NCBI GenBank assembly: GCA_016223105.1
Contig: JACRPR010000083.1
Span: forward strand, 32,724 to 96,723
Source: Chloroflexota bacterium
GTDB taxonomy: Bacteria > Chloroflexota > Anaerolineae > UBA4142
DNA length: 64,000 bases
Direction of reading: 5' to 3'
Positions 7,265-64,000 of the stretch are shown one piece after another (the stretch's first letter is position 1; the number at the start of each line of letters is the position of its first letter). The notes below the pieces were generated by a model that had not been told where the DNA came from, searched no databases, and saw only the letters and a list, made by a program, of their open reading frames with translations. The position numbers and the translations under genes are program-made.

Positions 7265-7334
7265 TGCAAATTTTCTCCTCAAATGATTTTGGCGCGCTCC
7301 GATTATAACTATCGCGAGTTTGTTGGCAAGTGGC

Positions 7335-7373
7335 AAAAAGAAACCCGCAGGGTCTTGCAGACCCTGCGGGTTT
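7335..7373 (-). terminator. Rho-independent terminator candidate for the exosortase operon
   Basis: The minus strand has a perfect stem (aaacccgcagggtct gca agaccctgcgggttt) followed by tttcttttt. Confidence 0.6.
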
Positions 7374-7377
7374 GCGA

Positions 7378-10771: not shown

Positions 10772-10865
10772 GTCATTGCGAGGAGCATCGTGAGCGGAGT
10801 CGAACGATACGACGAAGCAATCTCCGATCTGAAAGTGGGGATTGCTTCGCTTTGCTCGCAATGAC
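10772..10865. repeat. MITE-like palindromic element (GTCATTGCGAG...CTCGCAATGAC family)
   Basis: The terminal inverted repeats are gtcattgcgag / ctcgcaatgac, with an internal gaagcaatc...gattgcttc pair. It sits between the exosortase stop and the start of its target gene. Confidence 0.8.
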
Positions 10866-24449: not shown

Positions 24450-24475
24450 TGTGAGTCGGGGCGAGAGGACTTGAA
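24450..24475. repeat. att site (right), a 26-bp direct repeat overlapping the tRNA-Pro 3' end
   Basis: Identical to 14319-14344. It covers the last 20 nt of the tRNA plus 6 nt downstream. Confidence 0.9.
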
Positions 24476-24528
24476 CCTCCGACCTCAGCGTCCCGAACGC
24501 TGCGCGCTACCAACTGCGCTACGCCCCG
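24456..24528 (-). tRNA. tRNA-Pro (anticodon CGG)
   Basis: Manual cloverleaf, 73 nt: CGGGGCG-TA-GCGC-AGTTGGTA-GCGC-G-CAGCG-TTCGGGA-CGCTG-AGGTC-GGAGG-TTCAAGT-CCTCT-CGCCCCG-A. CCA is not encoded. Confidence 0.9.
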
Positions 24529-27456: not shown

Positions 27457-28836
27457 TCACGGTGCGCGCGTCGCGGTCGGCGCGAGCGCGGTGAACGTTG
27501 CCGCCGAAATCGGGACCGCGCGAAAATCAATTCCGCGCGGCGTGTTGAGATAACCCTGCGCTTTGCCGGTGATTGCTTGCGCGCCATATTGCCACACGAT
27601 GCGCCCGGCGCGATTCACGATCACGACGCGATGATTATAGTCATCGCTGAACGCAAAATTTCCGTTCGGCAATTCGATGACGTGCGACGGACGATCCAGC
27701 CAATCGTTTTCCGCGCGCGGAAAAAATTCCCAGACGACGCGCCCGTTCCACGCGAGTTCGATGATGCGACCTGGTTTTTCGTACGCCGCGAGCAGAACAT
27801 TGCCGGCGCGCGTGATTTGCGCTTCGGACGGATACGCGAGATTCGGCAGAGCGACCGAACGATACACCTTGCCTTGCAAATCCATTTCGCTCACGCGACG
27901 ATTCCCGGCTTCGGTGATGAGCAAGCGTCCATTCGCGAGCGGCGTCGCGCCAATCGGTTGATCGAGCAAACCAGGTTCGCCGCCGCACTGCGCGGTCTTG
28001 CCGATCTGCGCGACGACGCGCTTGTCCGGCGCGATGACGACGACGCGACAGTTGCGCGTGTCCGCGACAATCGTTGATCCGTCGGACAAACGTCGCGCGC
28101 TCGCGGGCGTGTTGAGATGCGCGTCATCCGGCGCGGCGACACCAGCTTCGCCGAACGACCACAACATTTTGCGCGATGCGATTTCGATCTCGACGACGCG
28201 ATTGTAGCGCGCGTGATTTGTGATGATCGAATTGCCGGTCGGCGCGAGCGTCGCATCGTCCGGCGCGTCGGTCGCGATTTCCCAGATCACGCGTTTGTCG
28301 TTTGTAACTTCGATCACGCGATTGTTGCCGGTGTCCGCGATGATGAGCGTGCCGGGCAGTGGCAAGCGATCACCCGCGGGAACGAGCGGCGTGATGCTGG
28401 GCGTTGATGTTACGCGCGGCGTCGCGCTGGGCGTCGCGGTGAACAGTAATGTCGGCGCGCGCGTCGGCAACGCGGCGACTGCGCGCAGAACGACAAGCCG
28501 TTGCGCGAGAAATGTCTCGCGATTTGTCGCGCGTCCTTCGATGCGAACCAGGTCGCCGTCTTTCAAATCGAGCAAACTGATTGGCTGTTGATCCGCGCCG
28601 ATGATCTCCGCGCCTTCGCTCAAAGTGATTTTCTGAAACGGTTCCGCGCGTTGATCGAGAATGAGCGCGCGTTCGTCGAACAAAATCGCGGCGATGCCGG
28701 CTTGGATCGCGAGCGGCGGTGTCGGCGATGGCATTGGCGTTGCAACACTTGTACACGCGACCAACAAAAACAAAACCAATTGGGACGCGGACAAACGCGG
28801 ACGCACGCGGATTTTTATTTTTCTCTCCGCGTTCAT
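27457..28836 (-). CDS. Secreted beta-propeller repeat lipoprotein (NHL/YncE-like repeats)
   Basis: The lipobox is LFLLVAC. A repeated blade motif recurs: DTGNNRVIEV, NRVVEIE, TRNCRVVVI, AGNRRVSEM, NHRVVIV. The start is uncertain (28836 or 28866). Confidence 0.6.
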   Translation of the reverse strand: MNAERKIKIRVRPRLSASQLVLFLLVACTSVATPMPSPTPPLAIQAGIAAILFDERALILDQRAEPFQKITLSEGAEIIGADQQPISLLDLKDGDLVRIEGRATNRETFLAQRLVVLRAVAALPTRAPTLLFTATPSATPRVTSTPSITPLVPAGDRLPLPGTLIIADTGNNRVIEVTNDKRVIWEIATDAPDDATLAPTGNSIITNHARYNRVVEIEIASRKMLWSFGEAGVAAPDDAHLNTPASARRLSDGSTIVADTRNCRVVVIAPDKRVVAQIGKTAQCGGEPGLLDQPIGATPLANGRLLITEAGNRRVSEMDLQGKVYRSVALPNLAYPSEAQITRAGNVLLAAYEKPGRIIELAWNGRVVWEFFPRAENDWLDRPSHVIELPNGNFAFSDDYNHRVVIVNRAGRIVWQYGAQAITGKAQGYLNTPRGIDFRAVPISAATFTALAPTATRAP

Positions 28837-28856
28837 CTGCGTTTGTCCGCGTCCAA
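28780..28856. repeat. Palindromic element of the TTGGACGCGGACAAACGC family
   Basis: ttgggacgcggacaaacgcggacgcacgcggattttt...ccgcgttcatctgcgtttgtccgcgtccaa. It contains the lipoprotein's candidate ATG. Confidence 0.8.
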
Positions 28857-28858
28857 TT

Positions 28859-31192
28859 TTATTCATATCGCAAAACCTGACCGACGCGCAAACGCGCGGC
28901 GGCAAGCGCGGGCGCGAGACTCGCGAGGATCGCGAGCGCGAGCGCGAACACCAAACTCGCAAGCACCATCGCGGGTGTCACCAGGTAATCAATGTGAAAC
29001 AAAACCGCTTGCATCAAATTCAACAACAATTGTCCGAGCGGATACCCAATCGCCAAACCGCCGAGCCAACCGACGAGACCCATCGTGATCCCTTCGGTGA
29101 GAAAAACTTGCACCAGGTTCGCGTCGAGCGCGCCCATCGCGCGCAAGATGCCGATCTCGCGACGACGTTCGAGGACGTTGAGCGTGAGCGTGTTCAACAC
29201 ACCGAGCGCGCCCATCGCGCCGATGAGCAGAGACATCGCGTACAACGCGAACGACAAAATGCGCGATTGTTCTTTCGCCGCGCGCACTTCGCGATACGCC
29301 GCGCCACCGCCCATCTGATATTTTTTGAAACGCGCGGCGAGTTCGCCCAAGCGTTTTTCGACCGTCGCCGGATCGCTTGCGTCGAAACCGAGCGCGAAAA
29401 AGGTCGTCCATCCTTCGCGGTTCTGCATTTTTTCGACAACCTCTTCCGGCAAAAACACTTTGCCCGCGACGCGACTGCCGAGAAAAATCGAATTGTCAAT
29501 CGTGATGCCAACGACGCGAAACGCGCGGCGCGTGTCACTTAATTCAATTTCGATTGAATCACCGACGCGCAGATTGCGTTCTTGCGCGAGATCGGTTGAA
29601 ACGATCACCGCGTCCGTTTCGCCGATTTGCAACCAACGTCCCGCGATCAAGCGCGGCGCGTACATTTTCGTGTCTTCCGGCAAACCCCACACGCGCACGC
29701 GACTCGCCTCGACCCAGCCATCGGTCAGCGTCCAGACTTCGGCGGCGCGCACGCCTTCGACCGCGCGAAAATTCGCGACGAAATTCGAGCCGACCCATTG
29801 ATCGAACCAGACCCAGGCATCGGTGTGAAATGTTTGGAACAAACCGTCAATCGCCGCGTCCACCGACGCGCTCGTGCTTTGCGCGGCAAGCGAAGTCGCG
29901 ACCGCGATCGCGATCACCGTCGTCGTGATGAGCGAACGCGTTTTTCGGCGCGCGAGATTGCGTAACGACATCGCGGCAAGCGGCGGCAACGCGATCATTT
30001 TTTGCGCGACGCGATCCATCCAGCCACGTCCGTACGTCGAAGTGATCCCGTACGCTTCGAGCGCATCTTTCACGCGAATCCCGGTCGCCGCGAACGATGG
30101 AATCAATCCCGCGAAAATCGTTACGCCGATGCCGACACTCGCGCCGAGCGCGAGCGCTTCCGGCGAAATGCTCAAACTCGAATCGAGATTGAGCAAGCCG
30201 CCGATGTACGCGAGCAATTGCCAACTCGCGAACGCGCCGAGCGCGATCCCGGCGAGCGTGCCGAAAATTCCGTACAGTGTGGACGCGATCAAATAAATCG
30301 CGAGCACTTGTACGCGCGTGCCGCCGACCGCTTTCACCGTGCCGATCTCGCCGACTTGTTCTGCCGTCATCGCCGCGAGCGTGTTCGCGACGAGAAAGCC
30401 GCTCGTTACAAGACCGACGATTGAAAAAACCGTGAGCAAAACAAACAGCGCGTCGAGTTCGCGCTTGCCGAGATAATTCAACGGATCGCGAATCGTCGGC
30501 GCGCCGCGCGGGATGCCGCGCCGATCCAATAATTTCGCGGCGGCATCCGCGGTTTCGCGCGCTTGCAAAATATCGTCAACTTTGATCAATGCCTGGTTCG
30601 CGCCGCCGATGCCGAGCAAGCGTTGCACATCGGACGCGTTCGCGTACACAGTCGCGAAATCGAGAATCGTCGCGGTCGGATAATTCGGGCTCTGTGCAAA
30701 GCCGGCGAGCGTGAGCGCACGAAACGAGCCATCGCTCGCGCGGCATTGAATCGTTTCGCCGGGTTGCGTCGAAAATAATTCGCGCACCGTAACTTCGGCG
30801 ACGAATTCGCCGGCGTTCGGCGCGCGATTCAACATGCGGATTTGATTGACGCGCGCGCCATCAAAACTTTGCAAGCCGAAAAAATTAACTTCGCGAAAAA
30901 CGCCGTTCCATTTGCATTTGGTGAAATAATTATTGCGGAGTTCGGCTTGCGCGATGTTCGGAATGTCAGCGAGCGCGCGTTCGGTCGCGAGCGGCGCGTC
31001 CCAGACCCAAAATGAAATGTCGGCTTGCGACGCGTTGAGGTACGCGGCGGCTTGCGCGCGCGTGAGGTTTTGCGCGGTCGAAACAATCGCGACAATACCC
31101 GCGACGCCGATGGCGATCGCGCCAATCGTGAGGAGCGAACGCAAGCGGCGTTTGGTGAGATCGCGATATGCTTTGCGGAAAAGTGCGCGCAT
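28859..31192 (-). CDS. ABC transporter permease, FtsX/MacB-like with two FtsX domains
   Basis: 777 aa. The N-terminus reads MRALFRKAYRDLTKRRLRSLLT. It has two 4-TM FtsX-type modules with large extracytoplasmic loops. No ATPase gene is adjacent. Confidence 0.8.
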   Translation of the reverse strand: MRALFRKAYRDLTKRRLRSLLTIGAIAIGVAGIVAIVSTAQNLTRAQAAAYLNASQADISFWVWDAPLATERALADIPNIAQAELRNNYFTKCKWNGVFREVNFFGLQSFDGARVNQIRMLNRAPNAGEFVAEVTVRELFSTQPGETIQCRASDGSFRALTLAGFAQSPNYPTATILDFATVYANASDVQRLLGIGGANQALIKVDDILQARETADAAAKLLDRRGIPRGAPTIRDPLNYLGKRELDALFVLLTVFSIVGLVTSGFLVANTLAAMTAEQVGEIGTVKAVGGTRVQVLAIYLIASTLYGIFGTLAGIALGAFASWQLLAYIGGLLNLDSSLSISPEALALGASVGIGVTIFAGLIPSFAATGIRVKDALEAYGITSTYGRGWMDRVAQKMIALPPLAAMSLRNLARRKTRSLITTTVIAIAVATSLAAQSTSASVDAAIDGLFQTFHTDAWVWFDQWVGSNFVANFRAVEGVRAAEVWTLTDGWVEASRVRVWGLPEDTKMYAPRLIAGRWLQIGETDAVIVSTDLAQERNLRVGDSIEIELSDTRRAFRVVGITIDNSIFLGSRVAGKVFLPEEVVEKMQNREGWTTFFALGFDASDPATVEKRLGELAARFKKYQMGGGAAYREVRAAKEQSRILSFALYAMSLLIGAMGALGVLNTLTLNVLERRREIGILRAMGALDANLVQVFLTEGITMGLVGWLGGLAIGYPLGQLLLNLMQAVLFHIDYLVTPAMVLASLVFALALAILASLAPALAAARLRVGQVLRYE

Positions 31193-38211: not shown

Positions 38212-38301
38212 CGTGAAACGTAATGCGTGATGCGTGAACGCTTCGCGCGCATCACGCATCACGCATTACCACTTACCATTTACTACTTACCAGTTTACCA
38301 C
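38212..38301. repeat. Heptamer-unit hairpin (GCGTGAT / ATCACGC) followed by a TTACCAN tandem run
   Basis: A hairpin (gtaatgcgtgatgcgtgaacgc...gcgcatcacgcatcacgcattac) is followed by cacttac catttac tacttac cagttta ccac. Confidence 0.8.
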
Positions 38302-40055: not shown

Positions 40056-40098
40056 GTCATTGCGAGCGGAGCGAAGCATTCCCCGGTTTTGCAATGAC
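40056..40098. repeat. Short MITE-like hairpin (GTCATTGCGAGCGGAGCGAAGCATT...GCAATGAC) in the deoR 5' leader
   Basis: Same family as 10772-10865 and 63041-63114. Confidence 0.75.
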
Positions 40099-45285: not shown

Positions 45286-47391
45286 ATGCCAACGAATTTT
45301 TGGAATGACGCGCACACCGCGCAATTAGATGAACTCGGTTTGCTCACGCATCGCTCGAATTTGCTCGGACACGATCGCTCGGTCGCGAACTGGGGCGGCG
45401 GCAATACTTCGATGAAAACGCTCGAACACGATTTTCGCGGGCGCGCGACGCGCGTGCTGTGGGTGAAAGGAAGCGGATCCGATCTCGCGACGATCACGCG
45501 CAAAGGATTTACCGCGTTGCGTTTGGACGACACCCTGCCCTTGATCGAACGCGCCACGATGAGCGACGACGAGATGGTGAATTATCTCGCGCACTGCGCG
45601 TTTACACCGGGACATCCGCGCGCGTCCATCGAAACGTTGATGCAGGAGTTCATTCCGGCGGCGCATGTGGATCACACGCACGCCGACGCGGTGATCGCGT
45701 TTTGTTGCGCGGTGAATAGCGAAGCGCTTACGCGCGAGGTCTTTGGCGACGATGTGATCTGGTTGCCGTACATTCGACCTGGTTTTCCGCTCGCCAAATT
45801 GATCGCGCAGGCGGTCGCGCAACGCCCGCACGCGCGTGCGGTGTTTATGGCGAAACACGGTCTCGTAACCTGGGGCGATTCCGCGCGCGCGAGTTATCAC
45901 AACACGCTCGCGATCATTCAACGCGCGGAAGATTACATCGCGCAACGCGCGCAAGGCAAGTCCGCGCTCGGCGGCGCGCGATTCGACGCGTTGCCGGAAG
46001 CGGAACGCCGCGCGCTGTTCGTGCAGATCGCGCCGATTGCGCGCGGCGCGGTCAGTCAACGCCGCCACACGCTTTTGCATTTCGACGATAGCGCGACGAC
46101 ACTCGCGTTCATCAATGCAGTCGAAGCGAAATCGCTCGCGTTGAGCGGCGCGGCGTGCCCCGACCATCTCGTTCACACGAAACCGACGCCGCTCTGGATT
46201 GATTGGACATCGCCGGACGATCTCGAAACAAATTTGCGCGCGGGGTTGGAATCATTCGCGCAATCGTACCGCGAATACTACGAAGCCGAAACACGCGCGC
46301 AAAATCTGAAATCTGAAATTCAAAATTTGAAATCAATTGCGATGGATGATCCGCACCCGCGCATCATTTTGATTCCGCGCGTCGGTTTGATCGCGACCGG
46401 CAAGGACGCGGCGACCGCGCAAATCAGCGCGGAGATTTATCAGCGCGCGATTGCGGTGATGCGCGGTTCGCACGCGCTCGGCGGATTTGTGCCGCTCACG
46501 CCAACCGAAGATTACGGTGTCGAGTATTGGCCCCTCGAACGCTACAAACTGACGCTCGCACCGCCGCCGCGCGAACTTGCCGGCAAGATCGCGTTCGTTA
46601 CCGGCAGCGCGAGCGGGATCGGTCGCGCGATTGCTCTGCGTCTCGCGCAGGAAGGCGCGCACGTTGTGATCGCGGATCTCAATCGCGCGGGCGCGCACGC
46701 GGTCGCGCAAACGATCGCGGAAAAATTTGGCGCGGGACGCGCGCTCGCGATGCAATGCGATGTAACGTGCGAAGACCAGGTCGTCGCCGCGTTCGATCAA
46801 ACCATCGCGCGGTACGGCGGACTCGACATCCTGGTTGCGAACGCCGGGCACGCGAGCGCGCATCCGATTGATCAAACCTCGCTCGCGGAGTGGAATCGCA
46901 TCCACGCGGTGCTTGCGACCGGCTATTTTCTCACCGCGCGCGAAGCGTTCAAAACGATGAAAGCACAGGCGCGCGGCGGACAAACTGCAAGTCCCTTTGG
47001 GATCATTTTTATTGCGTCGAAAAACGCGATCGCGCCGGGCAATGGCGCGGCGGCGTACAGCGCGGCGAAAGCGAGTGAACTACATCTCGCGCGTTGTCTC
47101 GCGGAAGAAGGCGGTGCGTTCGGCATTCGCGTCAACAGCGTTTGCCCCGACGCTGTGCTCGAAGGTTCGACGATCTGGAACAGCGAATGGCGCGCGCAAC
47201 GCGCGCGCGAGTACGGCATCGCGCCGGAGCAACTCGAAGAATTTTATCGCAAACGCAACACGCTCAAAGTAAACGTGTACGCGGAAGATGTCGCGGAAGC
47301 CGTTCTATTTCTGGTATCCGCGCGTTCCGCGAAAACGACCGGCGCGGTGTTGAACGTGGACGGCGGCGTGCCGGGAGCGTACGTGCGGTGA
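45286..47391 (+). CDS. rhaEW: Bifunctional rhamnulose-1-phosphate aldolase / short-chain dehydrogenase (RhaEW-type)
   Basis: The N-terminal class II aldolase-like part reads YRSNLLG..NWGGGNTSMK. The C-terminal SDR part has TGSASGIGRA and a YSAAK catalytic motif. 701 aa. Confidence 0.8.
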   Translation: MPTNFWNDAHTAQLDELGLLTHRSNLLGHDRSVANWGGGNTSMKTLEHDFRGRATRVLWVKGSGSDLATITRKGFTALRLDDTLPLIERATMSDDEMVNYLAHCAFTPGHPRASIETLMQEFIPAAHVDHTHADAVIAFCCAVNSEALTREVFGDDVIWLPYIRPGFPLAKLIAQAVAQRPHARAVFMAKHGLVTWGDSARASYHNTLAIIQRAEDYIAQRAQGKSALGGARFDALPEAERRALFVQIAPIARGAVSQRRHTLLHFDDSATTLAFINAVEAKSLALSGAACPDHLVHTKPTPLWIDWTSPDDLETNLRAGLESFAQSYREYYEAETRAQNLKSEIQNLKSIAMDDPHPRIILIPRVGLIATGKDAATAQISAEIYQRAIAVMRGSHALGGFVPLTPTEDYGVEYWPLERYKLTLAPPPRELAGKIAFVTGSASGIGRAIALRLAQEGAHVVIADLNRAGAHAVAQTIAEKFGAGRALAMQCDVTCEDQVVAAFDQTIARYGGLDILVANAGHASAHPIDQTSLAEWNRIHAVLATGYFLTAREAFKTMKAQARGGQTASPFGIIFIASKNAIAPGNGAAAYSAAKASELHLARCLAEEGGAFGIRVNSVCPDAVLEGSTIWNSEWRAQRAREYGIAPEQLEEFYRKRNTLKVNVYAEDVAEAVLFLVSARSAKTTGAVLNVDGGVPGAYVR
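46301..46337. repeat. AAATCTG-type heptamer run inside the rhaEW CDS
   Basis: aaaatctg aaatctg aaattca aaatttg aaatcaa is translated as QNLKSEIQNLKSI in the inter-domain region. Confidence 0.7.
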
Positions 47392-47392
47392 G

Positions 47393-47466
47393 TTCCTTTA
47401 TTTCCCTTATTTCCCTCATTTCCTTTGGGGCGAGGGAAATAAAGGAAATGATGGAAATCTGGGAAT
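47393..47466. repeat. Hairpin of TTTCCCT/AGGGAAA-type units
   Basis: ttcctttatttcccttatttccctcatttcc pairs with gggaaataaaggaaatgatggaaat. Confidence 0.8.
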
Positions 47467-47470
47467 TGTG

Positions 47471-48940
47471 ATGTCACTAAACTTGCTCGCGCTCGATCTC
47501 GGCGCGGAAAGCGGGCGCGCGATCCTGGGTCGGTTCGACGGTGCGCGGATCACGCTCGAAGAAATTCATCGCTTTGCAAACGAAGGTGTGCGCGTGAATG
47601 ATTCACTGCACTGGGACACGGCGCGCTTGTGGAGCGAAATCAAACACGCGCTCGCGTGCGCGCCGCGCGATGTCGCGAGCATCGGTCTCGATACCTGGGG
47701 CGTGGATTTCGGATTGCTCGATCAGAACGATCAATTGATCGACGCGCCGTTTCATTATCGCGATGCGCGCACCGATGGAATGATGGACGCCGCATTGCGC
47801 GTCACGTCGCGCGAAGAAATTTTTGAACAGACCGGCATTCAGTTTATGCCGATCAACACGCTCTATCAATTGCTCGCGATGCGCCGCGCGAACGCGCCCG
47901 CGCTCGCATCGGCGCAAACATTTTTGATGATGCCCGACCTGTTCAACTTTTGGTTGACCGGGCGCAAAGCATCCGAGTTCACGATTGCCAGCACGTCGCA
48001 ATGTTATGATCCACGCGCGCACCGTTGGGCAACGCCACTCCTCGAACGTTTGGAAATTCCAACGCGCATTTTCCCCGACATCATTCCGCCCGCGACGATC
48101 CTGGGATCACTCGCGCCATCGGTCGCAGATGAAACCGGCTTGCGCGACGCGCGCGTGATCGCGCCGGCGTGCCACGATACCGCGGCGGCGGTCGCGGCAG
48201 TGCCGGTATCGCAAGATGATTTTGTGTATCTCAGTTCCGGCACTTGGTCGTTGATGGGCGTCGAGACGCGCGCGCCGATCATCACGCCCGCGTCGCTCGC
48301 GAATAATTTTACGAACGAAGGCGGCGTCGCCGGGACGTTTCGCTTTTTGAAAAACATTATGGGCTTGTGGTTGATTCAAGAATGTCGCCGCGCCTGGGCG
48401 CGCGCCGGGCAAACGTTTTCGTACGACGATCTCACTCAACTCGCGGCAATCGCGCCGCGTTTCGTCGCGCTGATCGATCCGGACGACACGCGTTTTTTGC
48501 ATCCCGCCGATATGCCCGCGCAAATTCAAGCGTACTGCGCGGACACGCGTCAGACAATTCCACAAACACACGGCGAAATCGCGCGGTGCATTTTTGAGGG
48601 ACTCGCATTGAAATATCGGTGGACGCTGGAACGCATCGAGGAAATGACCGGGCAACACGCGAACGCGATTCACATTGTCGGCGGCGGCGCGCAAAATAAA
48701 ATGCTGTGCCAATTCACCGCCGATGCGACCGCACGCCCGGTGATCGCCGGACCAATCGAAGCGACCGCGAGCGGCAACGTGCTGATGCAAGCGCTCGCGC
48801 TCGGACACCTGGGATCCATCGCGGACGCGCGCCAGGTCGTGCGCGCGTCGTTTCCGCTTGCGACGTACGAACCGCGCGAGACGCCGGTGTGGGATGAGGC
48901 GTACGCGCGGTTTAGGAAAATCGCGTCAACGAACAAGTAA
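47471..48940 (+). CDS. rhaB: Rhamnulokinase (FGGY family)
   Basis: Has LALDLGAESGR and FGGY C-terminal motifs. A GTG at 47468 is an alternative start. Confidence 0.8.
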   Translation: MSLNLLALDLGAESGRAILGRFDGARITLEEIHRFANEGVRVNDSLHWDTARLWSEIKHALACAPRDVASIGLDTWGVDFGLLDQNDQLIDAPFHYRDARTDGMMDAALRVTSREEIFEQTGIQFMPINTLYQLLAMRRANAPALASAQTFLMMPDLFNFWLTGRKASEFTIASTSQCYDPRAHRWATPLLERLEIPTRIFPDIIPPATILGSLAPSVADETGLRDARVIAPACHDTAAAVAAVPVSQDDFVYLSSGTWSLMGVETRAPIITPASLANNFTNEGGVAGTFRFLKNIMGLWLIQECRRAWARAGQTFSYDDLTQLAAIAPRFVALIDPDDTRFLHPADMPAQIQAYCADTRQTIPQTHGEIARCIFEGLALKYRWTLERIEEMTGQHANAIHIVGGGAQNKMLCQFTADATARPVIAGPIEATASGNVLMQALALGHLGSIADARQVVRASFPLATYEPRETPVWDEAYARFRKIASTNK

Positions 48941-48993
48941 CGAATAAACGAATGGCATCACTCATTCGTTTATTCGTTTCCATTCGTTGACGC
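48923..48993. repeat. Hairpin of CGAATAA/TTATTCG-type units overlapping the rhaB stop
   Basis: gcgtcaacgaacaagtaacgaataaacgaatgg...ccattcgtttattcgtttccattcgttgacgc. Confidence 0.75.
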
Positions 48994-50124: not shown

Positions 50125-52611
50125 ATGAACCATTTTTTCCGTCGCGCCGAATTTATTTGGCGACCGCGCGATCTAACGCGCGTAACATTTTCGACCGCCG
50201 CGCCGCGTGTGCCGGCAGAAACGAATCGCTTTGTGTACTTTCGTCGCGTGATCGAAATCGCGGACGCGATTCAATCTGCGCCGGTGATGGTTACGGCGGA
50301 TGGACGCTACCAACTTTTCGTCAACGGCGTCCTAGTTGGACGCGGACCCGCACGCAGTAGCGCGGCGTATCGCTACGCCGATCCGTACGATCTCGCGCCG
50401 TACTTGAAACCGGGACGCAACGTGATCGCCGCGCTCGCGCACTCGTACGGACGTAATACCGCGTGGTACGAATTGCCGGGTTGGGATTACGCGCGCGCGT
50501 TTGGATGCGGCGGATTTTTTCTGCAAGGCGAAGTTGTAACCGCGCGCGATGTGGTGCAACTCGACACCGACGCGTCGTGGCGATGTTTGACCGCCGACGT
50601 GTGGCAACGCGATGTGCCATCGAACAGTCTCGGTTTTTCCGAAGTGTACGACGCGCGCCGCGCGCCGGAAAACTGGAACGCGCTCGCGTTCGATGACACA
50701 AGTTGGGAGCACGCGGAAATTTTGCGCGTGCCCGGACGCAATTACACCGGCGATGTGATCCCGTTTCAATTTCTCGCCGTGCGCGATATTCCCGCGCAAC
50801 GCGAAGGTCCGCTCGCGTTTGGCGCGGTGTTGTCGTGCAATGAAATCGCTAACGCGCCGACGTCAAACGATCTCGCCGCGCAAATGGATCAAGAAATCTT
50901 TTTGCCGTTGACGCATTGCCGCGTGATTAATGTCATTGCGAGCGAAGCGAAGCACTCCCCGACTACTGAAATCACCACGACCGACGCGCACAGCGTTTCC
51001 ATCGTGTACGATTTCGGGCAAGTCGTCGCCGGTTATATTCGATTTGAACTCGAAGGCGCGGCGGGCGCGCTTGTGGATTTTTATCCCGGCGAACAACTCT
51101 TGCCCGATGGACGCGTGCGAATCTTCGATGGCATTCCTGGTTTCGACGCGCCAATCGCGCATCGCTACATTTTGTGCGACGGCGCGCAAACCTGGGAACG
51201 CTTCGAGTGGAACGGTTTGCGCTATCTCCAGGTTACGTATCGCAACTGCGCGCAACCTCTGCATGTGCGCGCGGTCGCAGTCAATCAAACCGGGTATCCG
51301 GTTCAAGCGCGCGGACAATTCGAATGTTCCGACGACACGCTCAATCGCATCTGGCACGCCGGCGCGCGCACATTGCAACTGTGTATGCACGACGCGTTTG
51401 TGGATTGCCCTTCGCGCGAGCAACGTCAATGGATGGATGCGTATCTCGACACGCGCATCAATTACGCCGCGTTCGGCGACGCGCAACTCGCCGCGCGAAT
51501 GATGCGGCAGATCGCGCTCTCCCAACGTCCCGAAGGTCTCACGATGATGGCGGCGCCCGGTGATTTCTCAGTCCTGGGTTTCACGAACATCCCCGATTTT
51601 TGTTTGTACTGGATAATGACGATTGGCGATTACATTCAATTCACCGGCGAAACAAAAATCGTGGACGAGTTGTATTCGTCCGTCGTTAAAGCGATTCAAT
51701 GGTTCGAACGCCAACTCAACGCCGAAAATTTATTGACCGATGTGCCGCACTGGGTTTTCGTCGAGTGGGCGGAGACGGATAAAAAAGGTCAGGTCGCCGC
51801 GCTCAACGCGCAATTTGTCGCGGCATTGTGCGTTGCCGCGCAGATCGCGCGCATTGCCGAACATTCGCGCGCCGCGATTTATTTCGATGCACTCGCAACG
51901 CGCGTGCGCGACGCGCTCAACGAATTATTGTGGGATGAATCGCGCGGCGTGTACGCCGATGCGCGACGCGACGGAAAGTTGAGTCGCCGCATCAGCCAGC
52001 AGAGCAACGCGGCGATGATCGCGTTCGACATCGCGCCGCGCGAACGCTGGGATCGAATGTTCGAAACGATCCTCGATGAATCGCGACTCGTGCTCACGCA
52101 CGCACTCGGACACGACGGCGAAGTTACGCCGTTCGATGAAGAAAAAAATGTCGTGCAAGCGCAACCGTTCTATTCACATTTTTTGCACCGGGCATTGCGT
52201 CAAGCCGGAAAATTTGATAATATCATCGCCAACATTCGCGCGCGCTGGAGCGCGATGATCGCGAATGGCGAAAGCACGTTCCGCGAAACGTGGCAGTTGG
52301 AACCGATCACGAGCAAATGTCACGCGTGGTCGGCGACACCGACCTTCGATCTCTCGACCGACATCCTGGGCATCGCGCCGCTCGAACCTGGTTTCGCGCG
52401 ATTCCGCGTCGCGCCGCAAATCGAAAATCTCGCTTGGGCACGCGGCGCGTTCCCAACGCCGCGCGGCGATATTCAAGTCGCGTGGCGTCGCGACGCCAAT
52501 CGTTTTGAATTGTCGCTGACCGTCCCGGAAAATACGCAAGCCGAAATCGTTTTGCCCGCGCGCGAGATAATGATCGTCGGCGCGGGAACACATCGCGTTG
52601 TGGTCGAGTGA
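50125..52611 (+). CDS. Alpha-L-rhamnosidase (GH78)
   Basis: The N-terminal domain reads VTADGRYQLFVNGVLVGRGP. The catalytic (alpha/alpha)6 region has DAFVDCPSREQRQWMDAY. 828 aa. Confidence 0.8.
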   Translation: MNHFFRRAEFIWRPRDLTRVTFSTAAPRVPAETNRFVYFRRVIEIADAIQSAPVMVTADGRYQLFVNGVLVGRGPARSSAAYRYADPYDLAPYLKPGRNVIAALAHSYGRNTAWYELPGWDYARAFGCGGFFLQGEVVTARDVVQLDTDASWRCLTADVWQRDVPSNSLGFSEVYDARRAPENWNALAFDDTSWEHAEILRVPGRNYTGDVIPFQFLAVRDIPAQREGPLAFGAVLSCNEIANAPTSNDLAAQMDQEIFLPLTHCRVINVIASEAKHSPTTEITTTDAHSVSIVYDFGQVVAGYIRFELEGAAGALVDFYPGEQLLPDGRVRIFDGIPGFDAPIAHRYILCDGAQTWERFEWNGLRYLQVTYRNCAQPLHVRAVAVNQTGYPVQARGQFECSDDTLNRIWHAGARTLQLCMHDAFVDCPSREQRQWMDAYLDTRINYAAFGDAQLAARMMRQIALSQRPEGLTMMAAPGDFSVLGFTNIPDFCLYWIMTIGDYIQFTGETKIVDELYSSVVKAIQWFERQLNAENLLTDVPHWVFVEWAETDKKGQVAALNAQFVAALCVAAQIARIAEHSRAAIYFDALATRVRDALNELLWDESRGVYADARRDGKLSRRISQQSNAAMIAFDIAPRERWDRMFETILDESRLVLTHALGHDGEVTPFDEEKNVVQAQPFYSHFLHRALRQAGKFDNIIANIRARWSAMIANGESTFRETWQLEPITSKCHAWSATPTFDLSTDILGIAPLEPGFARFRVAPQIENLAWARGAFPTPRGDIQVAWRRDANRFELSLTVPENTQAEIVLPAREIMIVGAGTHRVVVE
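50932..50960. repeat. Half MITE (GTCATTGCGAGCGAAGCGAAGCACTCCCC) inside the GH78 CDS
   Basis: Translated in-frame as VIASEAKHSP. Confidence 0.7.
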
Positions 52612-52618: not shown

Positions 52619-52683
52619 GGATTCGACGCTTTAGCGGGTTGTTGGTCGAGCAATTCACAACAACCCGCTAAAGCGTCGAGTCC
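52619..52683. repeat. Palindromic element GGATTCGACGCTTTAGCGGGTTG...CAACCCGCTAAAGCGTCGAGTCC
   Basis: Near-perfect 27-bp arms immediately after the GH78 stop. Confidence 0.85.
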
Positions 52684-54347: not shown

Positions 54348-54410
54348 GACAAACGCTTTGCGTAAATTTGTCCCAATGACAATGCCTTTGCCAAACGGTC
54401 AGATACTTTT

Positions 54411-54479
54411 TCCCACTGACGGAAAAGAACACGGACGATCAAAAATATAAAATGTCCGTGTTCCCTTCCGTCAGTGGGA
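54411..54479. repeat. Palindromic element TCCCACTGACGGAAAAGAACACGGAC...
   Basis: Inverted arms around an A/T-rich loop, related to 33401-33460. Confidence 0.7.
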
Positions 54480-54516
54480 AAAACGATTGGGGGCTTGGCG
54501 GGGTATTCGATGCGAG

Positions 54517-55525: not shown

Positions 55526-56491
55526 ATGGCTGATCTACATCGCGACAGCATAATCATTGATGGTTTGAACGCGAGCAATTTTTACGCGCCGCGCGTGTTT
55601 GATCGTTTGCGCGCGGGCGGCGTAACCGCGGCGAACGTAACGCTTGCCGCGTGGCACGATTTACAGGAAACGATGAAGATTATCGCGGACATGCTTCACC
55701 TGATCGAAGCGCGCGACGATCTGATCCAGGTGCGCGACGCGGACGACATTACGCGCGCCAAAGCCGCGAACAAACTTGGGATCATTTTCGGTTTTCAAGA
55801 CACCGCGCCGATTGGCGATAATTTGAAAATGCTCGCGGTGTATCGCGCGCTCGGCGTGCGAATCATTCAGTTGACTTACAATCACACGAACCGGGTCGGG
55901 AGCGGCAACTTGATCCCAGACGATCCCGGCTTGACCCAGTTCGGGCGCAACGTGATCGCGGAGATGAATCGGCTTGGCATCCTGGTTGATCTCTCGCACT
56001 GCGGCGTTCGCACAACCTGGGACGCGATTGAAGCGTCAACTAAACCGGTCGCGTTCACGCACGCGAATCCGTTCGCGCTCTGTCCGCATCCGCGCAACAA
56101 ATCGGACGACGCGCTCAAAGCGGTCGCGGCAAAAGGCGGCGTCGTCGGCGGCGTCGTCTTTGCGCCGATGTTGACCGGCGCGGCAACCGCGACGCTCGAC
56201 GAATACCTGCAACGCGTGGATTATCTCGTCAACTTGATCGGCGTTGATCACGTCGGCATCGGTCCCGATTTTATGGAGGAGATGACCGAGGAAGTTTCGG
56301 CGCGCGCGTTAAGTGGGATGCCGCCCGAGGTCGCCGCGAAATTTCGCGCGGTGCAACCGACCCAGGGTTTTGAATCGATCGCGGCGTGCGCGAATGTTAC
56401 GGCAGGTTTAAGCGCGCGCGGTTATCGCGACGCAGATGTGAAAAAAATTATGGGCGAAAATTGGTTGAGATTGTATCGCGCGGTGTGGTAG
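55526..56491 (+). CDS. Membrane dipeptidase (peptidase M19 family)
   Basis: Contains IIDGLN, VDLSHCG and FTHANP. Confidence 0.85.
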   Translation: MADLHRDSIIIDGLNASNFYAPRVFDRLRAGGVTAANVTLAAWHDLQETMKIIADMLHLIEARDDLIQVRDADDITRAKAANKLGIIFGFQDTAPIGDNLKMLAVYRALGVRIIQLTYNHTNRVGSGNLIPDDPGLTQFGRNVIAEMNRLGILVDLSHCGVRTTWDAIEASTKPVAFTHANPFALCPHPRNKSDDALKAVAAKGGVVGGVVFAPMLTGAATATLDEYLQRVDYLVNLIGVDHVGIGPDFMEEMTEEVSARALSGMPPEVAAKFRAVQPTQGFESIAACANVTAGLSARGYRDADVKKIMGENWLRLYRAVW

Positions 56492-56534
56492 GGCAAATTT
56501 CCAATTTGCCCCGTTCGCAAATTGGAAATTTGCG
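56491..56534. repeat. Double hairpin GGGCAAATTTCCAATTTGCCC / GCAAATTGGAAATTTGC
   Basis: Same family as 60914-60960. Confidence 0.8.
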
Positions 56535-57404
56535 TTACGGCATTCCTTCAATCGCGATCTCGCCGCAATAGACCGGCGAGAGGTTGCCCTGCGCGTCGCG
56601 GTATTGCGCGTGCAGTTTGAACGTTTGCCAATTGATCGCGACGCGCACGGGATAAATTTTTTCAGCAACAAAATTTTCCCAGGGCGCGTCGCTCATTTCT
56701 TCGGGCGTTAAACAACGTCCGACCGGACTAGAATTGACGCGCATCTCTTTGATCGCCGCGCGCGGGCTCGTCGCCTCGAATTTGACTTTGATGTCGAGCG
56801 CGCTTCCGGCTTTGCCGCCGACAATCGGTCGCTCACCCACCTCAATTTTTCCACTGATCGGAAACGCCATGCGCGCGTTCGCAATGATCGTTTGCAACGC
56901 GGGCGGTTGCGCGGCGACCGGCGTGCGCTCATCCAGCGCGCCGGTGATTGGCATCCAATTGCTTGCGCGTTCCGCGAAATTATTTCCCGCCGGAATAATC
57001 CCGCCGCGCGCGTCGCGAAATTGCGCGGTCACGCCGTACTCGCGCAAGCCGATCCAATCCACGTTCACTTGCGCGCGCACAGAATTCGCGAACGGCATCC
57101 ACTGCGCCGGCAAATCACACGCGCGCCCCGCGCCGACGCAGTAACGCATTTCCGCGATGTTGTGATCTTTCCAATCGGTTTCGCTCGTTGCATCCATTTG
57201 TTTGAACGGTCGAAACGCGATCGTGATCGTGATCGAATTACCGATGCCGGTCGTGATCGCGCCCGCGCCACCTTCGCCAAAAATCGCGAGGACGACGTGA
57301 CCTTTGATCACGGTAGTTGGCGATGGCACGGGTGTGGGCGTGAGCGGCGCGGCGCATCCCATCGCGCAAACCAGGATCGCGATCCACAGACTCGGAATTT
57401 TCAT
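56535..57404 (-). CDS. Lipoprotein with two copies of an uncharacterised ~95-aa domain
   Basis: The ATG at 57404 has a GGAGG RBS and the lipobox is VCAMGC. The internal repeat pattern is I.EMR..C...W..F...V.V.W....AQ.RDA.G..P. Confidence 0.5.
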   Translation of the reverse strand: MKIPSLWIAILVCAMGCAAPLTPTPVPSPTTVIKGHVVLAIFGEGGAGAITTGIGNSITITIAFRPFKQMDATSETDWKDHNIAEMRYCVGAGRACDLPAQWMPFANSVRAQVNVDWIGLREYGVTAQFRDARGGIIPAGNNFAERASNWMPITGALDERTPVAAQPPALQTIIANARMAFPISGKIEVGERPIVGGKAGSALDIKVKFEATSPRAAIKEMRVNSSPVGRCLTPEEMSDAPWENFVAEKIYPVRVAINWQTFKLHAQYRDAQGNLSPVYCGEIAIEGMP

Positions 57405-60895: not shown

Positions 60896-60913
60896 TGTGT
60901 CCTCCCAAATGTT

Positions 60914-60960
60914 GGGCAAATTTCTAATTTGCCCCTGAATGGCAAATTGGAAATTTGCCC
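60914..60960. repeat. Double hairpin GGGCAAATTTCTAATTTGCCC / GGCAAATTGGAAATTTGCC
   Basis: Lies between the amidohydrolase stop and the CoA ligase start. Same family as 56491-56534. Confidence 0.8.
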
Positions 60961-61811
60961 TACGCAAAAACTTTTAACGCGGTGTCGCGCAAAATTTTTC
61001 GTTGCGCTTGATCAGAAATCGGAAGCGTTTTGAATTTTTCAATGTTCGCGCCAATGTCTTTGACAAACGGTCCGGGCCAATCCGATCCAAACATCGTTTG
61101 GTCCGCGATCTGTTCGAGGCGCGGAAAATATTCCAACAGGTTTTGCGGCGGGATGTTGGAAATTTCGAGAAAGACATTTTTGCTCCGCCGCACGAGAAAG
61201 AATGCTTCGTCCATCCAGAGCGGACGACCGCCATGCGCGAGGATTATACGCAGTTTCGGAAAATCTACAATTAAATCGTCCGCGTAAATCGGTTGCGCGT
61301 ATTTGTTGCGCGCGCGCGGAAACACCGACGTGCCGGTGTGAATCATCACCGGCAAACCCAGGTCTTGCGCGCGTTCGTACAGTTTGGCTTGTTGCGGCAA
61401 ATTGTCGCGATATTGATTCGGGTAAATTAATTGATGCGCGGGATGCACCTTGAGCAATTTGATGCCCAGGTTTGCGAGCCGTTCCACTTCCGCCGCGCAA
61501 TCTTGTGTGAAGCGCGGATGCACCGAGCCGCACGCGATCAAACGATCGGGCGCGGCTTGCACATAGCGCGCGACCCAGTCGTTTGTCTCCGCGGTAAAGC
61601 CCATCACGTCCGGCGCGACGTAATTGATCAGCACCGCTTTTTCGACGCCGACACGATCGAGGTACGCGAGCAGTTTTGCCGGGTCGCGCATCATCGCGAC
61701 CACCTCGTCGAAATTCGCGAGATGCGCGCCGAACGCTTTGAATGTTTCCGGGTTCAACATTTCGAGCGGTTGGATGTGGATGTGAACGTCAATGGCAAGG
61801 TAATTGTTCAT
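60960..61811 (-). CDS. Amidohydrolase-2 family metal-dependent hydrolase
   Basis: Has an N-terminal IDVHIHI and a TIM-barrel hydrolase pattern. Confidence 0.8.
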   Translation of the reverse strand: MNNYLAIDVHIHIQPLEMLNPETFKAFGAHLANFDEVVAMMRDPAKLLAYLDRVGVEKAVLINYVAPDVMGFTAETNDWVARYVQAAPDRLIACGSVHPRFTQDCAAEVERLANLGIKLLKVHPAHQLIYPNQYRDNLPQQAKLYERAQDLGLPVMIHTGTSVFPRARNKYAQPIYADDLIVDFPKLRIILAHGGRPLWMDEAFFLVRRSKNVFLEISNIPPQNLLEYFPRLEQIADQTMFGSDWPGPFVKDIGANIEKFKTLPISDQAQRKILRDTALKVFA

Positions 61812-61846
61812 AGATGATCCAAGACCCTAAAGGTTTTCAAAAACCT

Positions 61847-62422
61847 TTAGGGTCTGCGCGCGGCTTGCGCCTGGCGCACAATGTCCGCGAGTTGATTGAG
61901 ATGATCGTTGTCGTGTTTCAAGCCGAACACAAAACGCGTGATCGCGTTGAGCGGTTCGAAACCAGGACGGCTCTCGTACGCGTTTTGCAAATCCGGTTTT
62001 GGGGGCCATGCATCGAGCAGTGCCAATCTCATTCGCCGCGATTCTTCCAACCGTTCGCGACATTGCGCGATGGTTGTGATCGTATCCCAGGGAATTTCGT
62101 ACCGCGACCGTCCGCCGCGATGCGGCACGCCACGCGCGAGTTCGGCGGCGATGAACGCGGATTCTTCCGCGGACGCGGTAACGTGGGCGATGACGTGTCC
62201 CAGCGTCCACGCGAGATGCACCAGGTCGGGATCGTCGGCGAATGAATCGTACGCGTTCGCGTCTTTGGGGACGAACGTAACATCCTCATCCGCGCAGTTC
62301 GCGATCAGGTTTTGCATCGTGTCAAGCATTTCGTTTGTGAGCGCGCGCAAATCATTCGGCGTAAGATTCTCCGTGAGTTGGCGCATCTTGATGCCTTTGC
62401 CGAGCGCAGTGAAATCGAGCAT
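61847..62422 (-). CDS. DinB-family protein
   Basis: The ATG at 62422 has an AAGGAG RBS. It shows a four-helix DinB His pattern (HVIAH..., HDNDHLNQL). The listed N-terminal extension only translates a repeat. Confidence 0.7.
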   Translation of the reverse strand: MLDFTALGKGIKMRQLTENLTPNDLRALTNEMLDTMQNLIANCADEDVTFVPKDANAYDSFADDPDLVHLAWTLGHVIAHVTASAEESAFIAAELARGVPHRGGRSRYEIPWDTITTIAQCRERLEESRRMRLALLDAWPPKPDLQNAYESRPGFEPLNAITRFVFGLKHDNDHLNQLADIVRQAQAARRP

Positions 62423-62432: not shown

Positions 62433-62503
62433 ATGTTGGAAGTTGGATGTTGGAAATTGGAAAGTGGAATCCAACATCCAACTTCTAACTTCCAACTTCC
62501 AAC
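62433..62503. repeat. Hairpin of GGAAGTT/AACTTCC units (same family as 1292-1391)
   Basis: atgttggaagttggatgttggaaattggaaagtggaatccaacatccaacttctaacttccaacttccaac. Confidence 0.85.
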
Positions 62504-64000
62504 GCACCTTTCAGCCACTCTTTATTCGCCGGCAGATTATAACACCGAATCCCGGTCGCGTTAAATATCGCATTGATGATCGCGGGCGCGGTCGGGATCG
62601 ACGCGAGTTCGCCGACGCCTTTCGCGCCATAGGGGCCGTCTTTTGTTTCGTCTTCGACAAAAAATGCGGTGATCTCCGGCGTTTGATCAATCGTCGGCAG
62701 ATTGCATTTGTGAAGCGAATCGGTTTGCACGTAACCATCCTTCATCACAAAATTTTCTTGCAATGCCATTCCGAGCCCCATCGAAATACTGCCTTCGACT
62801 TGACCGAGCAGAGCGAGCGGATTCATCACGCGCCCAACATCGCACGCGGCGATCACTTGCAAAACCTGGGTCGCGCCGGTTTTCACATCCACTTCCACAA
62901 GCGCGGCTTGCGCGCCGAATCCAAACGCGACGTGTTGATATTTTTCAGTGTGCGGCGCGACGTACTGATAACTGATTTTCGGAATGCGACCTTCGCGGCG
63001 CGCGGCTTGTACGACATCGTTCAACGCGACGCGACGATCTGTCATTGCGAGCGGTTTCTGCGAAGCAATCTCCAAATCGCGATCTGGAGATTGCTTCCCT
63101 TCGCTCGCAATGACATACCCATCCACAAACACCAAACTTTCCGGCGACGCATCCAACATCTCCGCCGCGACCTGGCTGAGCAACGCGCGTGCTTCGCGAC
63201 ACGCGTGGCGCGCCGCGTTGCCGGTGACGTACGTTTGGCGCGACGCGGTTGTCGCAAAACCATCGAGTGTTAAATCGGTGTCCGCGACCAACACATCAAC
63301 TTGCTCATACGGCACGCCGAGTTCTTCCGTAACGATTTGCGCGAGCACACCGACGAGTCCTTGTCCGATTTCTGCCGCGCCCGCGCGAATCGCCGCGCGA
63401 CCGTCCGCGAATAATTCAACTTCCGCGCCAGCCGCATCGTACGCGCCACTGCCAAAGCCGGTATTTTTGTACGCGCACGCGACGCCCCACGCGCGGCGTT
63501 TGTCGCCTTCGACCGCGACGACCTGGTGTTTGTTCATCGCGGCGATCACTTTTTCCAAACACTCGTCAAGTCCGCAACTTTCGGTCATCACTTGCCCGGC
63601 GAGCGTGCGCTTGCCGTACTTTAAAATGTTTTTGCGGCGAATTTCAATCGGCGAAATGGTGAGCGCGCGCGCGAGTTCGTCCATCTGGCTTTCCATCGCG
63701 AACGCAGACTGCGTAACGCCGAATCCGCGAAACGCGCCGGACGGCACATTGTTCGTGTACATCGCGAACGTGTTGACGCGCACATTTTCGACCTGGTATG
63801 GTCCCGCGGCGTGTGTCGTCGAGCGCAACATCACATGATTGCTGAGCGATGCGTACGCGCCACCGTCGCCATAAATTTCAACTTCGTGCGCGACGAGCGT
63901 GCCATCCTTGCGCGCGCCGGTTTTCATTTTGATTTGCGTCGCGTGGCGTTTCGGATGGACGAGCAGAGATTCTTTGCGTGTGAAGACCAATTTGACCGGG
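62485..64000 (-). CDS. Xanthine dehydrogenase/aldehyde oxidase family molybdopterin-binding subunit; 5' part lies beyond the window
   Basis: The frame is open to nt 64000. It contains GFGVTQSAFAMESQMD, GQGLVGVLAQIV and PYGAKGVGE. Confidence 0.8.
   Translation of the reverse strand, partial: PVKLVFTRKESLLVHPKRHATQIKMKTGARKDGTLVAHEVEIYGDGGAYASLSNHVMLRSTTHAAGPYQVENVRVNTFAMYTNNVPSGAFRGFGVTQSAFAMESQMDELARALTISPIEIRRKNILKYGKRTLAGQVMTESCGLDECLEKVIAAMNKHQVVAVEGDKRRAWGVACAYKNTGFGSGAYDAAGAEVELFADGRAAIRAGAAEIGQGLVGVLAQIVTEELGVPYEQVDVLVADTDLTLDGFATTASRQTYVTGNAARHACREARALLSQVAAEMLDASPESLVFVDGYVIASEGKQSPDRDLEIASQKPLAMTDRRVALNDVVQAARREGRIPKISYQYVAPHTEKYQHVAFGFGAQAALVEVDVKTGATQVLQVIAACDVGRVMNPLALLGQVEGSISMGLGMALQENFVMKDGYVQTDSLHKCNLPTIDQTPEITAFFVEDETKDGPYGAKGVGELASIPTAPAIINAIFNATGIRCYNLPANKEWLKGALEVGS
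63041..63114. repeat. Complete MITE-like palindrome inserted in-frame in the molybdoenzyme CDS
   Basis: gtcattgcgagcg...gaagcaatctcc...ggagattgcttc...cgctcgcaatgac is translated as VIASEGKQSPDRDLEIASQKPLAMT. Confidence 0.8.

Follow-up and report, generated by a model that had tools for sequence, protein, structure and literature searches.

A palindromic repeat of 76 bases lies in frame inside a gene of the xanthine dehydrogenase (XDH)/aldehyde oxidase family in a 64,000-nt stretch of contig JACRPR010000083.1 (assembly GCA_016223105.1), from a Chloroflexota bacterium of the Anaerolineae. We refer to this whole stretch as the window. The segment at 63040 to 63115 is an insertion of one copy of a repeat family. 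It is very probably a selfish dimer of two units that resemble repetitive extragenic palindromic (REP) sequences, inserted in a β-hairpin turn of the second molybdopterin-cofactor-binding domain, where it decorates the enzyme without breaking it and is neutral or nearly so.

The palindrome and the turn that it occupies

The host gene, the palindrome, and the peptide that it encodes are as follows.

62485..64000, minus strand: C-terminal 504 codons and stop codon of a xanthine-dehydrogenase/aldehyde-oxidase-family molybdopterin-binding subunit (from Pfam and relatives in the PDB)
63040..63115, no strand assigned: complete, near-perfect nested palindrome running TGTCATTGCGAG...CTCGCAATGACA; modules in order are TGTC tag, outer stem ATTGCGAGCG, spacer, inner stem, spacer, CGCTCGCAAT, and GACA tag; the inner stem is GAAGCAATCTCCA.ATCG / CGAT.TGGAGATTGCTTC, ~16 bp
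63040..63114, minus strand: element-encoded peptide VIASEGKQSPDRDLEIASQKPLAMT, 25 codons in the host frame (from translation and ortholog alignment); the peptides across the insert junctions of the filled protein are ...FVDGYVIASEGK and QSPDRDLEIASQK

The full sequence of the element is TGTCATTGCGAGCGGTTTCTGCGAAGCAATCTCCAAATCGCGATCTGGAGATTGCTTCCCTTCGCTCGCAATGACA. An earlier reading made from the letters alone (the sequence-only reading) had located this repeat at 63041 to 63114, which misses only the T and A bases of the tags. The element has perfect terminal inverted repeats of 11 to 13 bp, and its outer stem GTCATTGCGAGCG/CGCTCGCAATGAC surrounds the inner stem. Folded as RNA, it reaches −55.8 kcal/mol compared to −27.1 ± 3.4 kcal/mol for shuffled sequences (z = −8.45), a stability attained by none of the 200 shuffles. 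It matches 61 of the 70 defined consensus columns of a subfamily recovered from metagenomes, and its layout resembles that of two TGTC-tagged REP-like units joined head to head.

Assignment of the host to the XDH/aldehyde oxidase family is based on its Pfam domains (MoCoBD_1, 6e-43; MoCoBD_2, 8e-68), the family fold, and matches to solved relatives, namely, the alpha subunit of 4-hydroxybenzoyl-CoA reductase (1rm6_A, 3e-60) and nicotinate dehydrogenase (3hrd_B, 2e-53). Homologs at E ≤ 1e-30 numbered 6175. The minus-strand frame, which reads ...SLVFVDGYVIASEGKQSPDRDLEIASQKPLAMTDRRVALNDVV..., stays open between the window edge and the stop codon at 62485 to 62487, and the element is read through across the 504 codons with no break of frame, as had been claimed. 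Four of the six reading frames are stop-free across this copy; a TGA in ...GCAATGAC shuts one frame on each strand.

The sequence-only reading had proposed an ortholog alignment as a check on the insertion. We aligned the 120 best of the 6175 homologs and measured the segment that runs from "ASPESL" to "ARRE". It is uninterrupted, at exactly 32 residues, in 99 of the 120 homologs; in the window protein it has 53 residues. Its native form, F-x-D-G-x-V-(S/R)-S-N-G-H-S-V-x-L, is a tight β-hairpin. In the window protein, about 3 native turn residues have been swapped for 24 element-encoded ones, a net gain of 21 residues (63 nt), so that the earlier figure of 24 to 25 added residues was too high. 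Because the element itself is 74 to 76 nt, its insertion must have cost a few native turn codons. The claim that it sits between conserved segments is borne out, and the inserted DNA is the palindrome of an abundant repeat family.

Extra residues in this loop are found in other homologs as well. In 14 of the 120 homologs the segment carries at least 8 extra residues (range, +8 to +56), although those of P0016 lie just upstream of the turn. P0069 (locus L128) and P0046 (L123) have the same element at the same junction as the window, and P0059 (L126) has a decayed copy there. In P0008 (L124) the left terminus persists in degenerate form (GTCATAGCGGGC), and after it comes a different palindrome, which encodes GNEGNK; a palindrome of this GGAAATAAGG type also occurs at window positions 47390 to 47465. 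The insert of P0053 (VILSEAKNL...LRSAQHDK), known from the peptide alone, is another repeat type, and the remaining loop inserts fall in no recognized class. A second hotspot follows window residue 158, where P0089 carries an in-frame GGAAGTTGG-type palindrome (L129 844-1005). Palindromes of the family inserted there (GGAAGTTGGA... / ...TCCAACTTCC, read as WKLEVG / NFQHPTSN) also occur in the window, at 1294 to 1391 and at 62435 to 62503. The latter overlaps the 3′ end of the XDH-family gene, with the stop codon at 62485 to 62487 and the last ~6 codons (...ALEVGS*) inside it.

In a neighbor-joining tree, the filled alleles (asterisks) fall in two small subclades, ((P0002, P0069*), (P0033, (P0001*, (window*, P0008*)))) and ((P0059*, P0089), (P0049*, (P0046*, P0053*))). 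The deep clades that hold them are only ~57% identical, which argues that the same family was acquired at least twice, with other families responsible for further events. The filled states were then inherited and remodeled. A single origin of the inserts from their shared GCGATTTGG core and GCAAAAAACG / GCARAAAC(C)G spacer was considered and rejected, since the metagenome scan revealed both to be general traits of the abundant subfamily. The coincidence of junctions may reflect targeting or only selective filtering.

Probable tolerance of the insert by the enzyme

Does the enzyme tolerate a surface-loop insertion, or has the gene been inactivated in a way not visible as a stop codon? The sequence-only reading had offered both options, and our data favor the first. 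Outside the loop, the ratio of nonsynonymous to synonymous divergence (dN/dS) of the window gene was 0.075 against P0008, 0.090 against P0069, 0.044 against P0001, and 0.072 against P0012, with dS ranging from 0.6 to >1. The same loop also holds inserts in P0008 and P0069, so that it was filled along much of the evolutionary path compared. The window protein keeps all invariant columns of the family alignment, and purifying selection acts on the remainder of the gene.

Structure prediction is consistent with this picture. An AlphaFold2 model built from the same alignment (mean predicted local distance difference test [pLDDT] score, 79; predicted TM score [pTM], 0.81) places strands at residues 289 to 292, 295 to 298, and 323 to 325, with the insert (residues 299 to 322) at the tip of the β-hairpin. 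Most insert residues score below 50, and the flanking blocks score 90 to 96. Foldseek aligned the model to 1rm6 (4-hydroxybenzoyl-CoA reductase) with a TM score of 0.77 to 0.78. The insert is thus predicted to be a disordered excursion located in a turn. This turn probably faces the solvent, since relatives accept from 8 to 56 extra residues there, and enzyme activity is probably retained.

One potential explanation to the contrary is that the gene is dead or crippled, the 25-residue insert or the stable mRNA hairpin abolishing folding, assembly, or expression without a stop codon. A duplex of ~30 bp at −55.8 kcal/mol within the message might indeed serve as an RNase III substrate or as an obstacle to ribosomes. 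Gene decay also occurs in this group, as evidenced by the contig of the close homolog P0001 (L127), on which the XDH-family gene is called as two open reading frames (ORFs; 4675 to 5979 and 6001 to 7485), a split that could stem from a frameshift or stop codon or from misassembly. We nevertheless regard such hidden inactivation as unlikely, and tolerance as much likelier. The dN/dS values of 0.075 to 0.09 come from comparisons with relatives that themselves carry loop inserts, the invariant residues and the frame are intact, the predicted fold is unaffected beyond the insert, and filled alleles persist in two separate subclades.

It is very unlikely, in our view, that the insert has been co-opted, with the peptide providing a new surface function or the mRNA hairpin tuning expression or cotranslational folding. 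Co-option would explain why several lineages are filled, and filled states do persist and diversify in both subclades; intragenic copies of the element also strongly prefer one hydrophilic frame. However, such a preference is the expected outcome of purifying selection acting against frames that are hydrophobic or contain stops. The loop inserts are unrelated in sequence (the TGTC family, the VILSEAKNL type, the GNEGNK type, and others) and differ in length from +8 to +56, the same element decorates unrelated proteins, and the insert is predicted to be disordered.

The repeat family and its relation to tagged REPs

To place the element, we scanned one genome per species for GTCATTGCGAG-N45-75-CTCGCAATGAC. 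These exact termini with an interior of 45 to 75 nt were found at no fewer than 120 genome loci in at least 7 phyla. The matches listed came from Alpha-, Gamma-, and Deltaproteobacteria, Bacteroidota, Chloroflexi, Patescibacteria/Berkelbacteria, Planctomycetota, Cyanobacteria, and Moduliflexus. Isolates among them belong to Bradyrhizobium, Sphingomonas, Sphingobium, Mucilaginibacter, Pedobacter, and Flavobacterium, and those from Gamma- and Deltaproteobacteria, Chloroflexi, Patescibacteria/Berkelbacteria, Planctomycetota, Cyanobacteria, and Moduliflexus are metagenome-assembled genomes (MAGs). All listed copies share the architecture GTCATTGCGAG-spacer-GAAGCAATC-loop-GATTGCTTC-spacer-CTCGCAATGAC, that is, a tag, ATTGCGAG, a short spacer or small hairpin, GAAGCAATC(C/T), a variable center, and the mirror image of these modules.

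What kind of repeat is this? Its closest counterparts are the CGTC-tagged REPs of Di Nocera, De Gregorio, and Rocco (2013; BMC Genomics 14:522, PMC3733652). Those units have a CGTC tag (TGTC or CCTC being allowed), a stem of 8 to 9 bp that starts with complementary A-T, a loop of 4 to 5 nt, and a CCA tail; they occur mostly as head-to-head dimers without a dedicated transposase and are abundant in alphaproteobacteria and Bacteroidetes (PMC3733652). Four CGTC families were distinguished, aberrant loops were mentioned for CGTC-1 of Bradyrhizobium, Rickettsia RPE-4 and RPE-6 were included, and intragenic dimers were found to encode 20 to 30 residues, often in uvrA and other repair genes (PMC3733652).

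The arm unit of our family is (C/T)GTC-ATTGC-loop-GCAAT-CCA. Among the 132 genome copies, GTCATTGC is preceded by C in 89 and by T in 36 (67% and 27%; C or T, 95%), and in the metagenome subfamily by T in 71 of the 72 copies (99%); the window copy runs TGTC...GACA. The unpaired terminal CGTC/TGTC tag of the CGTC-tagged REPs is therefore present. GCAAT is followed by CCA, their tail, in 125 of 234 arms (53%) and by CTC in 49, including the window copy. As in those REPs, the stem starts with A-T, and neither an associated transposase nor a target-site duplication was found. The tags are outside in all copies retrieved, with a search pattern that itself requires a dimer; single arms occur in the window at 50932 and 40056. 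Further points of likeness are the strong presence in Bradyrhizobium, sphingomonads, Micavibrio, and Bacteroidetes and the intragenic dimers of 20 to 30 residues, with uvrA among their hosts. In contrast, Chloroflexi, Patescibacteria, Planctomycetota, and Cyanobacteria are outside the five phyla listed for CGTC repeats (PMC3733652). The unit also departs from the canonical stem and loop, and because of these sizes we consider the element closely allied to the CGTC-tagged REP superfamily (PMC3733652) but not a proven member.

Several points weigh against the reading of the insert as a tolerated, selfish REP-like dimer. The unit stem ATTGC/GCAAT is 5 bp, not 8 to 9 bp, and the loop, canonically 4 to 5 nt, measures 12 nt in 91 arms and 18 nt in another 44 and has other lengths in the rest; a single arm folded alone has a median z score of just −1.95. 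Clustering of neighbor ORFs, a weak test, revealed no enriched gene family within 600 bp of 128 copies in 120 loci, and no homolog of a Y1 transposase was found within the window. Inner-stem GTG/GCG variants mostly face the common GAA on the other arm, and so there is no covariation of the kind expected from selection for a long hairpin. For sister families (ATCCT/AGGAT and similar), the loci covered contain few cases that bear on covariation. On the side of tolerance, the dN/dS values average both lineages and are compatible with a loss of function that is very recent and confined to this lineage, the window edge cuts off the N-terminal part of the gene, and the case is built from sequence and predicted structure.

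The sequence-only reading had called the element MITE-like, after MITEs, the miniature transposable elements with inverted repeats. This holds for its small size, many copies, and perfect terminal inverted repeats of 11 to 13 bp; like the bacterial MITEs Correia, Nezha, and BOX/RUP, some of which are fused in frame to host ORFs, it also forms a stable RNA hairpin (PMC3184786, PMC10969869). It does not hold for the mode of insertion. Direct repeats of 1 to 6 nt flank the 132 genome and 72 metagenome copies at or below the frequency expected by chance, the flanks being inverted instead, and for lack of a target-site duplication the element is not a classical MITE. No parent insertion sequence (IS) came to light, though no search aimed at one was made, no conserved neighboring gene was found across the 120 loci, and the termini show the CGTC/TGTC tag, the A-T stem start, and the CCA tail of tagged REPs (PMC3733652). 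Movement by an IS transposase that recognizes the terminal inverted repeats is thus highly improbable. The only gene for a Y1_Tnp protein encountered (157 residues, IS200/RAYT-like; L127 928 to 1401) was considered as a mobilizer and rejected, given that its flanks are unrelated to the element and the window holds no homolog. It lies 3 kb upstream of the XDH-family gene of P0001.

REPINs, the doublets of GTAG-tagged REPs that are mobilized by RAYTs, resemble the element in having two inverted REP-like units able to form one long hairpin, in being non-autonomous, in lacking target-site duplications, and in lying mostly just downstream of genes. They differ from it in the tag (GTAG instead of CGTC/TGTC), and no RAYT gene flanked by these units was found. 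Rfam returned no family for the element at the gathering threshold or at E ≤ 10 and only chance matches to microRNAs. In the literature, we found the terminal 11-mers only in unrelated primers and not as a described bacterial repeat, and we found no description of the repeat in Chloroflexi.

Copies of the element are themselves interrupted. A mini-palindrome of ~27 nt (CACTTGCACCGCACGCAAGTGCAGGTG, read as TLAPHASAGV) is nested in copies at L128 267-293 and in L131, L152 to L154, L156, L165, L184, L188, L211, and L214. In nearly all of 14 cases it sits exactly at A^TTGC, that is, 3′ of GCAA, without duplication, a site specificity that is reminiscent of IS200/IS605-type targeting.

With the family in hand, we return to the peptide. 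The sequence-only reading had held that the same segment in orthologs from unrelated taxa would mark it as ancestral protein sequence. The peptide is indeed carried by P0069 and P0046, decayed in P0059, and as a remnant in P0008, and homologs just 57% identical (P0046 and P0059) have a similar one at the same junction. Ancestry does not follow. The peptide-bearing homologs are minorities nested among empty relatives and at the DNA level are copies of the same repeat, which points to recurrence or inheritance of the insertion. Phmmer with 30 residues against 1.8 billion representatives gave a single match (P0241), and a 52-residue concatenation of the window and P0046 insert peptides had no match in a peptide-level census; such short peptides are below the reach of these tools. 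We give next to no credence to an ancestral segment since lost in most lineages, as the same 32-residue length is found in 99 of 120 homologs across both deep clades, the net gain of 63 nt is less than the 76-nt element and excludes precise excision as the source of the empty sites, the DNA closely follows the consensus of a repeat that has hundreds of nongenic copies, and the palindrome has stayed intact although synonymous sites in the host genes have reached saturation (dS, 0.6 to >1). Equally negligible is a repeat-induced chimera, for although the window derives from a MAG and repeats are typical mis-join points, the same gene continues in the same frame with orthologous sequence on both sides of the insert, and independent assemblies (L123, L126, and L128) show filled alleles at the same site.

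Copies elsewhere and their consequences

The exact terminal 11-mer GTCATTGCGAG occurs 6 times in the window and marks four copies. Counts of 11-mers with one mismatch are by themselves not beyond chance; the long palindromes and the hundreds of matching copies elsewhere are. The three copies outside the XDH-family gene are as follows.

10772..10865, no strand assigned: full 94-nt copy between two minus-strand genes
40056..40098, no strand assigned: 43-nt copy with an internal deletion that leaves the left arm and ...TTGCAATGAC; lies in the leader of a gene for a DeoR-like regulator
50932..50965, plus strand: left-arm remnant GTCATTGCGAGCGAAGCGAAGCACTCCCC..., in frame as VIASEAKHSP, in the coding sequence of a GH78 alpha-L-rhamnosidase-like protein (50125 to 52611)

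The first two had been reported before. The copy at 10772 to 10865 is a full intergenic member of the same family, beginning 2 nt past the stop of the gene at 10868 to 12370 and ending 17 nt before the start of that at 7875 to 10754. The one at 40056 to 40098 also belongs to the family but is internally deleted, and of its right end only ...TTGCAATGAC is left. The fourth copy, in the GH78 gene, was absent from the earlier list. The window protein reads HCRVI-N-VIASEAKHSP-TTEITT in this loop, whereas its nearest ortholog, P0122 (86% identity), is empty (HCRV-NESR-DEIIT), and P0123 (78% identity; L250) contains a full TGTC element there, within which another hairpin is nested. The window copy is therefore a half-deleted relic, and it shows how such inserts decay into ordinary-looking loop sequence.

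The window is crowded with further families of short palindromes, at 4769 to 4813, 28778 to 28859, 38220 to 38269, 47390 to 47465, 48939 to 48978, 52619 to 52683, 54407 to 54483, 56488 to 56538, 60911 to 60963, and 61822 to 61855. Two of the window's other palindromes start with GTAGGGCAAATTTC... and are thus GTAG-tagged and REP-like. A tRNA gene on the minus strand (24456 to 24528) is the sole Rfam match in the window at the gathering threshold.

How often does the family reside in genes? The metagenome set of 120 loci gave 116 distinct subfamily copies, and counting ORFs with at least 80 codons on each side, we found 50 stop-free ORFs spanning a copy. Pfam confirmed 15 of the 20 longest as real genes, and in at least 8 the insert lies inside a domain or between two domain matches. 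The share of metagenome copies in frame in real genes is thus ~7 to 13% (at least 8 to 15 of 116). The hosts include the following.

L144: GH67 alpha-glucuronidase
L156: RecD2
L157: GH2
L181: TtuA
L201: PriA
L206: porphobilinogen deaminase (HemC)
L214: HflX
L237: NACHT NTPase

Nearly all in-frame metagenome copies use the same frame as the window copy, ...KQSPxRDLEIAS..., which is hydrophilic and stop-free. Depletion of stop codons across the family is modest, 41 to 53% of copies being open per frame compared to 28 to 38% of shuffles. In two gammaproteobacterial MAGs, CGTC-tagged copies lie in frame in the GATase domain of GMP synthase (L041 4466-4543) and in UvrA (L047 2835-2921). The PriA helicase ORF (L201 2215-5802) has the element just before the Walker A motif. 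At 1196 residues it is well above the usual size of PriA, and it probably holds further inserts.

In-frame insertion of palindromes is already known from Rickettsia and other bacteria, and what is new here is the host lineage and the variant of the repeat unit. The Rickettsia palindromic elements (RPEs; Ogata et al. 2000, as cited in PMC3184786 and PMC3733652) are likewise palindromic selfish DNA that resides in frame in many genes, essential ones included, with inserts in loops and hosts that stay functional; RPE-4 and RPE-6 share the CGTC tag. In our data, in-frame insertion in apparently functional genes was found in the XDH-family and GH78 genes and in those for PriA, HemC, HflX, RecD2, GH2, GH67, GuaA, and UvrA. 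Unlike RPE-1, which by the descriptions cited there (a comparison of description, not of sequence) is ~105 to 146 bp and confined to Rickettsia, the present family extends to many phyla and to free-living bacteria.

We propose that a non-autonomous selfish palindrome entered the DNA encoding the β-hairpin turn of the second molybdopterin-cofactor-binding domain and that a small accompanying loss of native turn codons left the added length a multiple of three. The stop-free frame would then yield a hydrophilic peptide, rich in Ser, Pro, Asp, and Lys, hanging off the solvent-facing turn. This copy would have survived because its added length is a multiple of three and its frame is stop-free and hydrophilic; more generally, insertions would survive only at permissive turns and under these same conditions. 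The element probably moves in trans as single-stranded hairpin DNA without target duplication, and the obvious candidate for its mobilizer would be a tyrosine transposase of the IS200/IS605 or RAYT kind. Its stable mRNA hairpin may lower expression of the host gene.

A more far-reaching possibility, which we hold only tentatively, is that the ATTGCGAG/GCAATC element forms one pan-bacterial lineage of tagged-REP dimers, spread over at least 7 phyla with no known transposase. Such a lineage might colonize the coding DNA of Anaerolineae-type Chloroflexi at a rate like that of RPEs in Rickettsia (about 1 in 10 copies in real genes, nearly always in one hydrophilic frame), reach the XDH and GH78 loops through sequence- or structure-directed targeting in addition to selective filtering, and itself be parasitized by the 27-nt hairpin precisely 3′ of GCAA. 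If this is true, it would amount to a natural large-scale experiment in loop insertion and would offer a route to the mobilizing enzyme.

The insertion in the XDH-family gene is a clean and well-controlled example of selfish palindromes remodeling protein loops beyond Rickettsia: the bacteria are free-living Chloroflexi, and the host protein is a redox enzyme for which structures of relatives have been solved. The case also points to permissive sites that could be used in molybdoenzyme engineering, such as the β-hairpin turn that takes up to 56 extra residues. It also warns annotators that the repeat yields many spurious "hypothetical proteins" (VIARSEATKQS..., SLRGAKRRSN..., and ...LLRFARND) and inflates apparent protein divergence. 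Finally, it raises a question of mechanism, that of how a repeat with conserved 11-nt termini and no known transposase has become so widespread.

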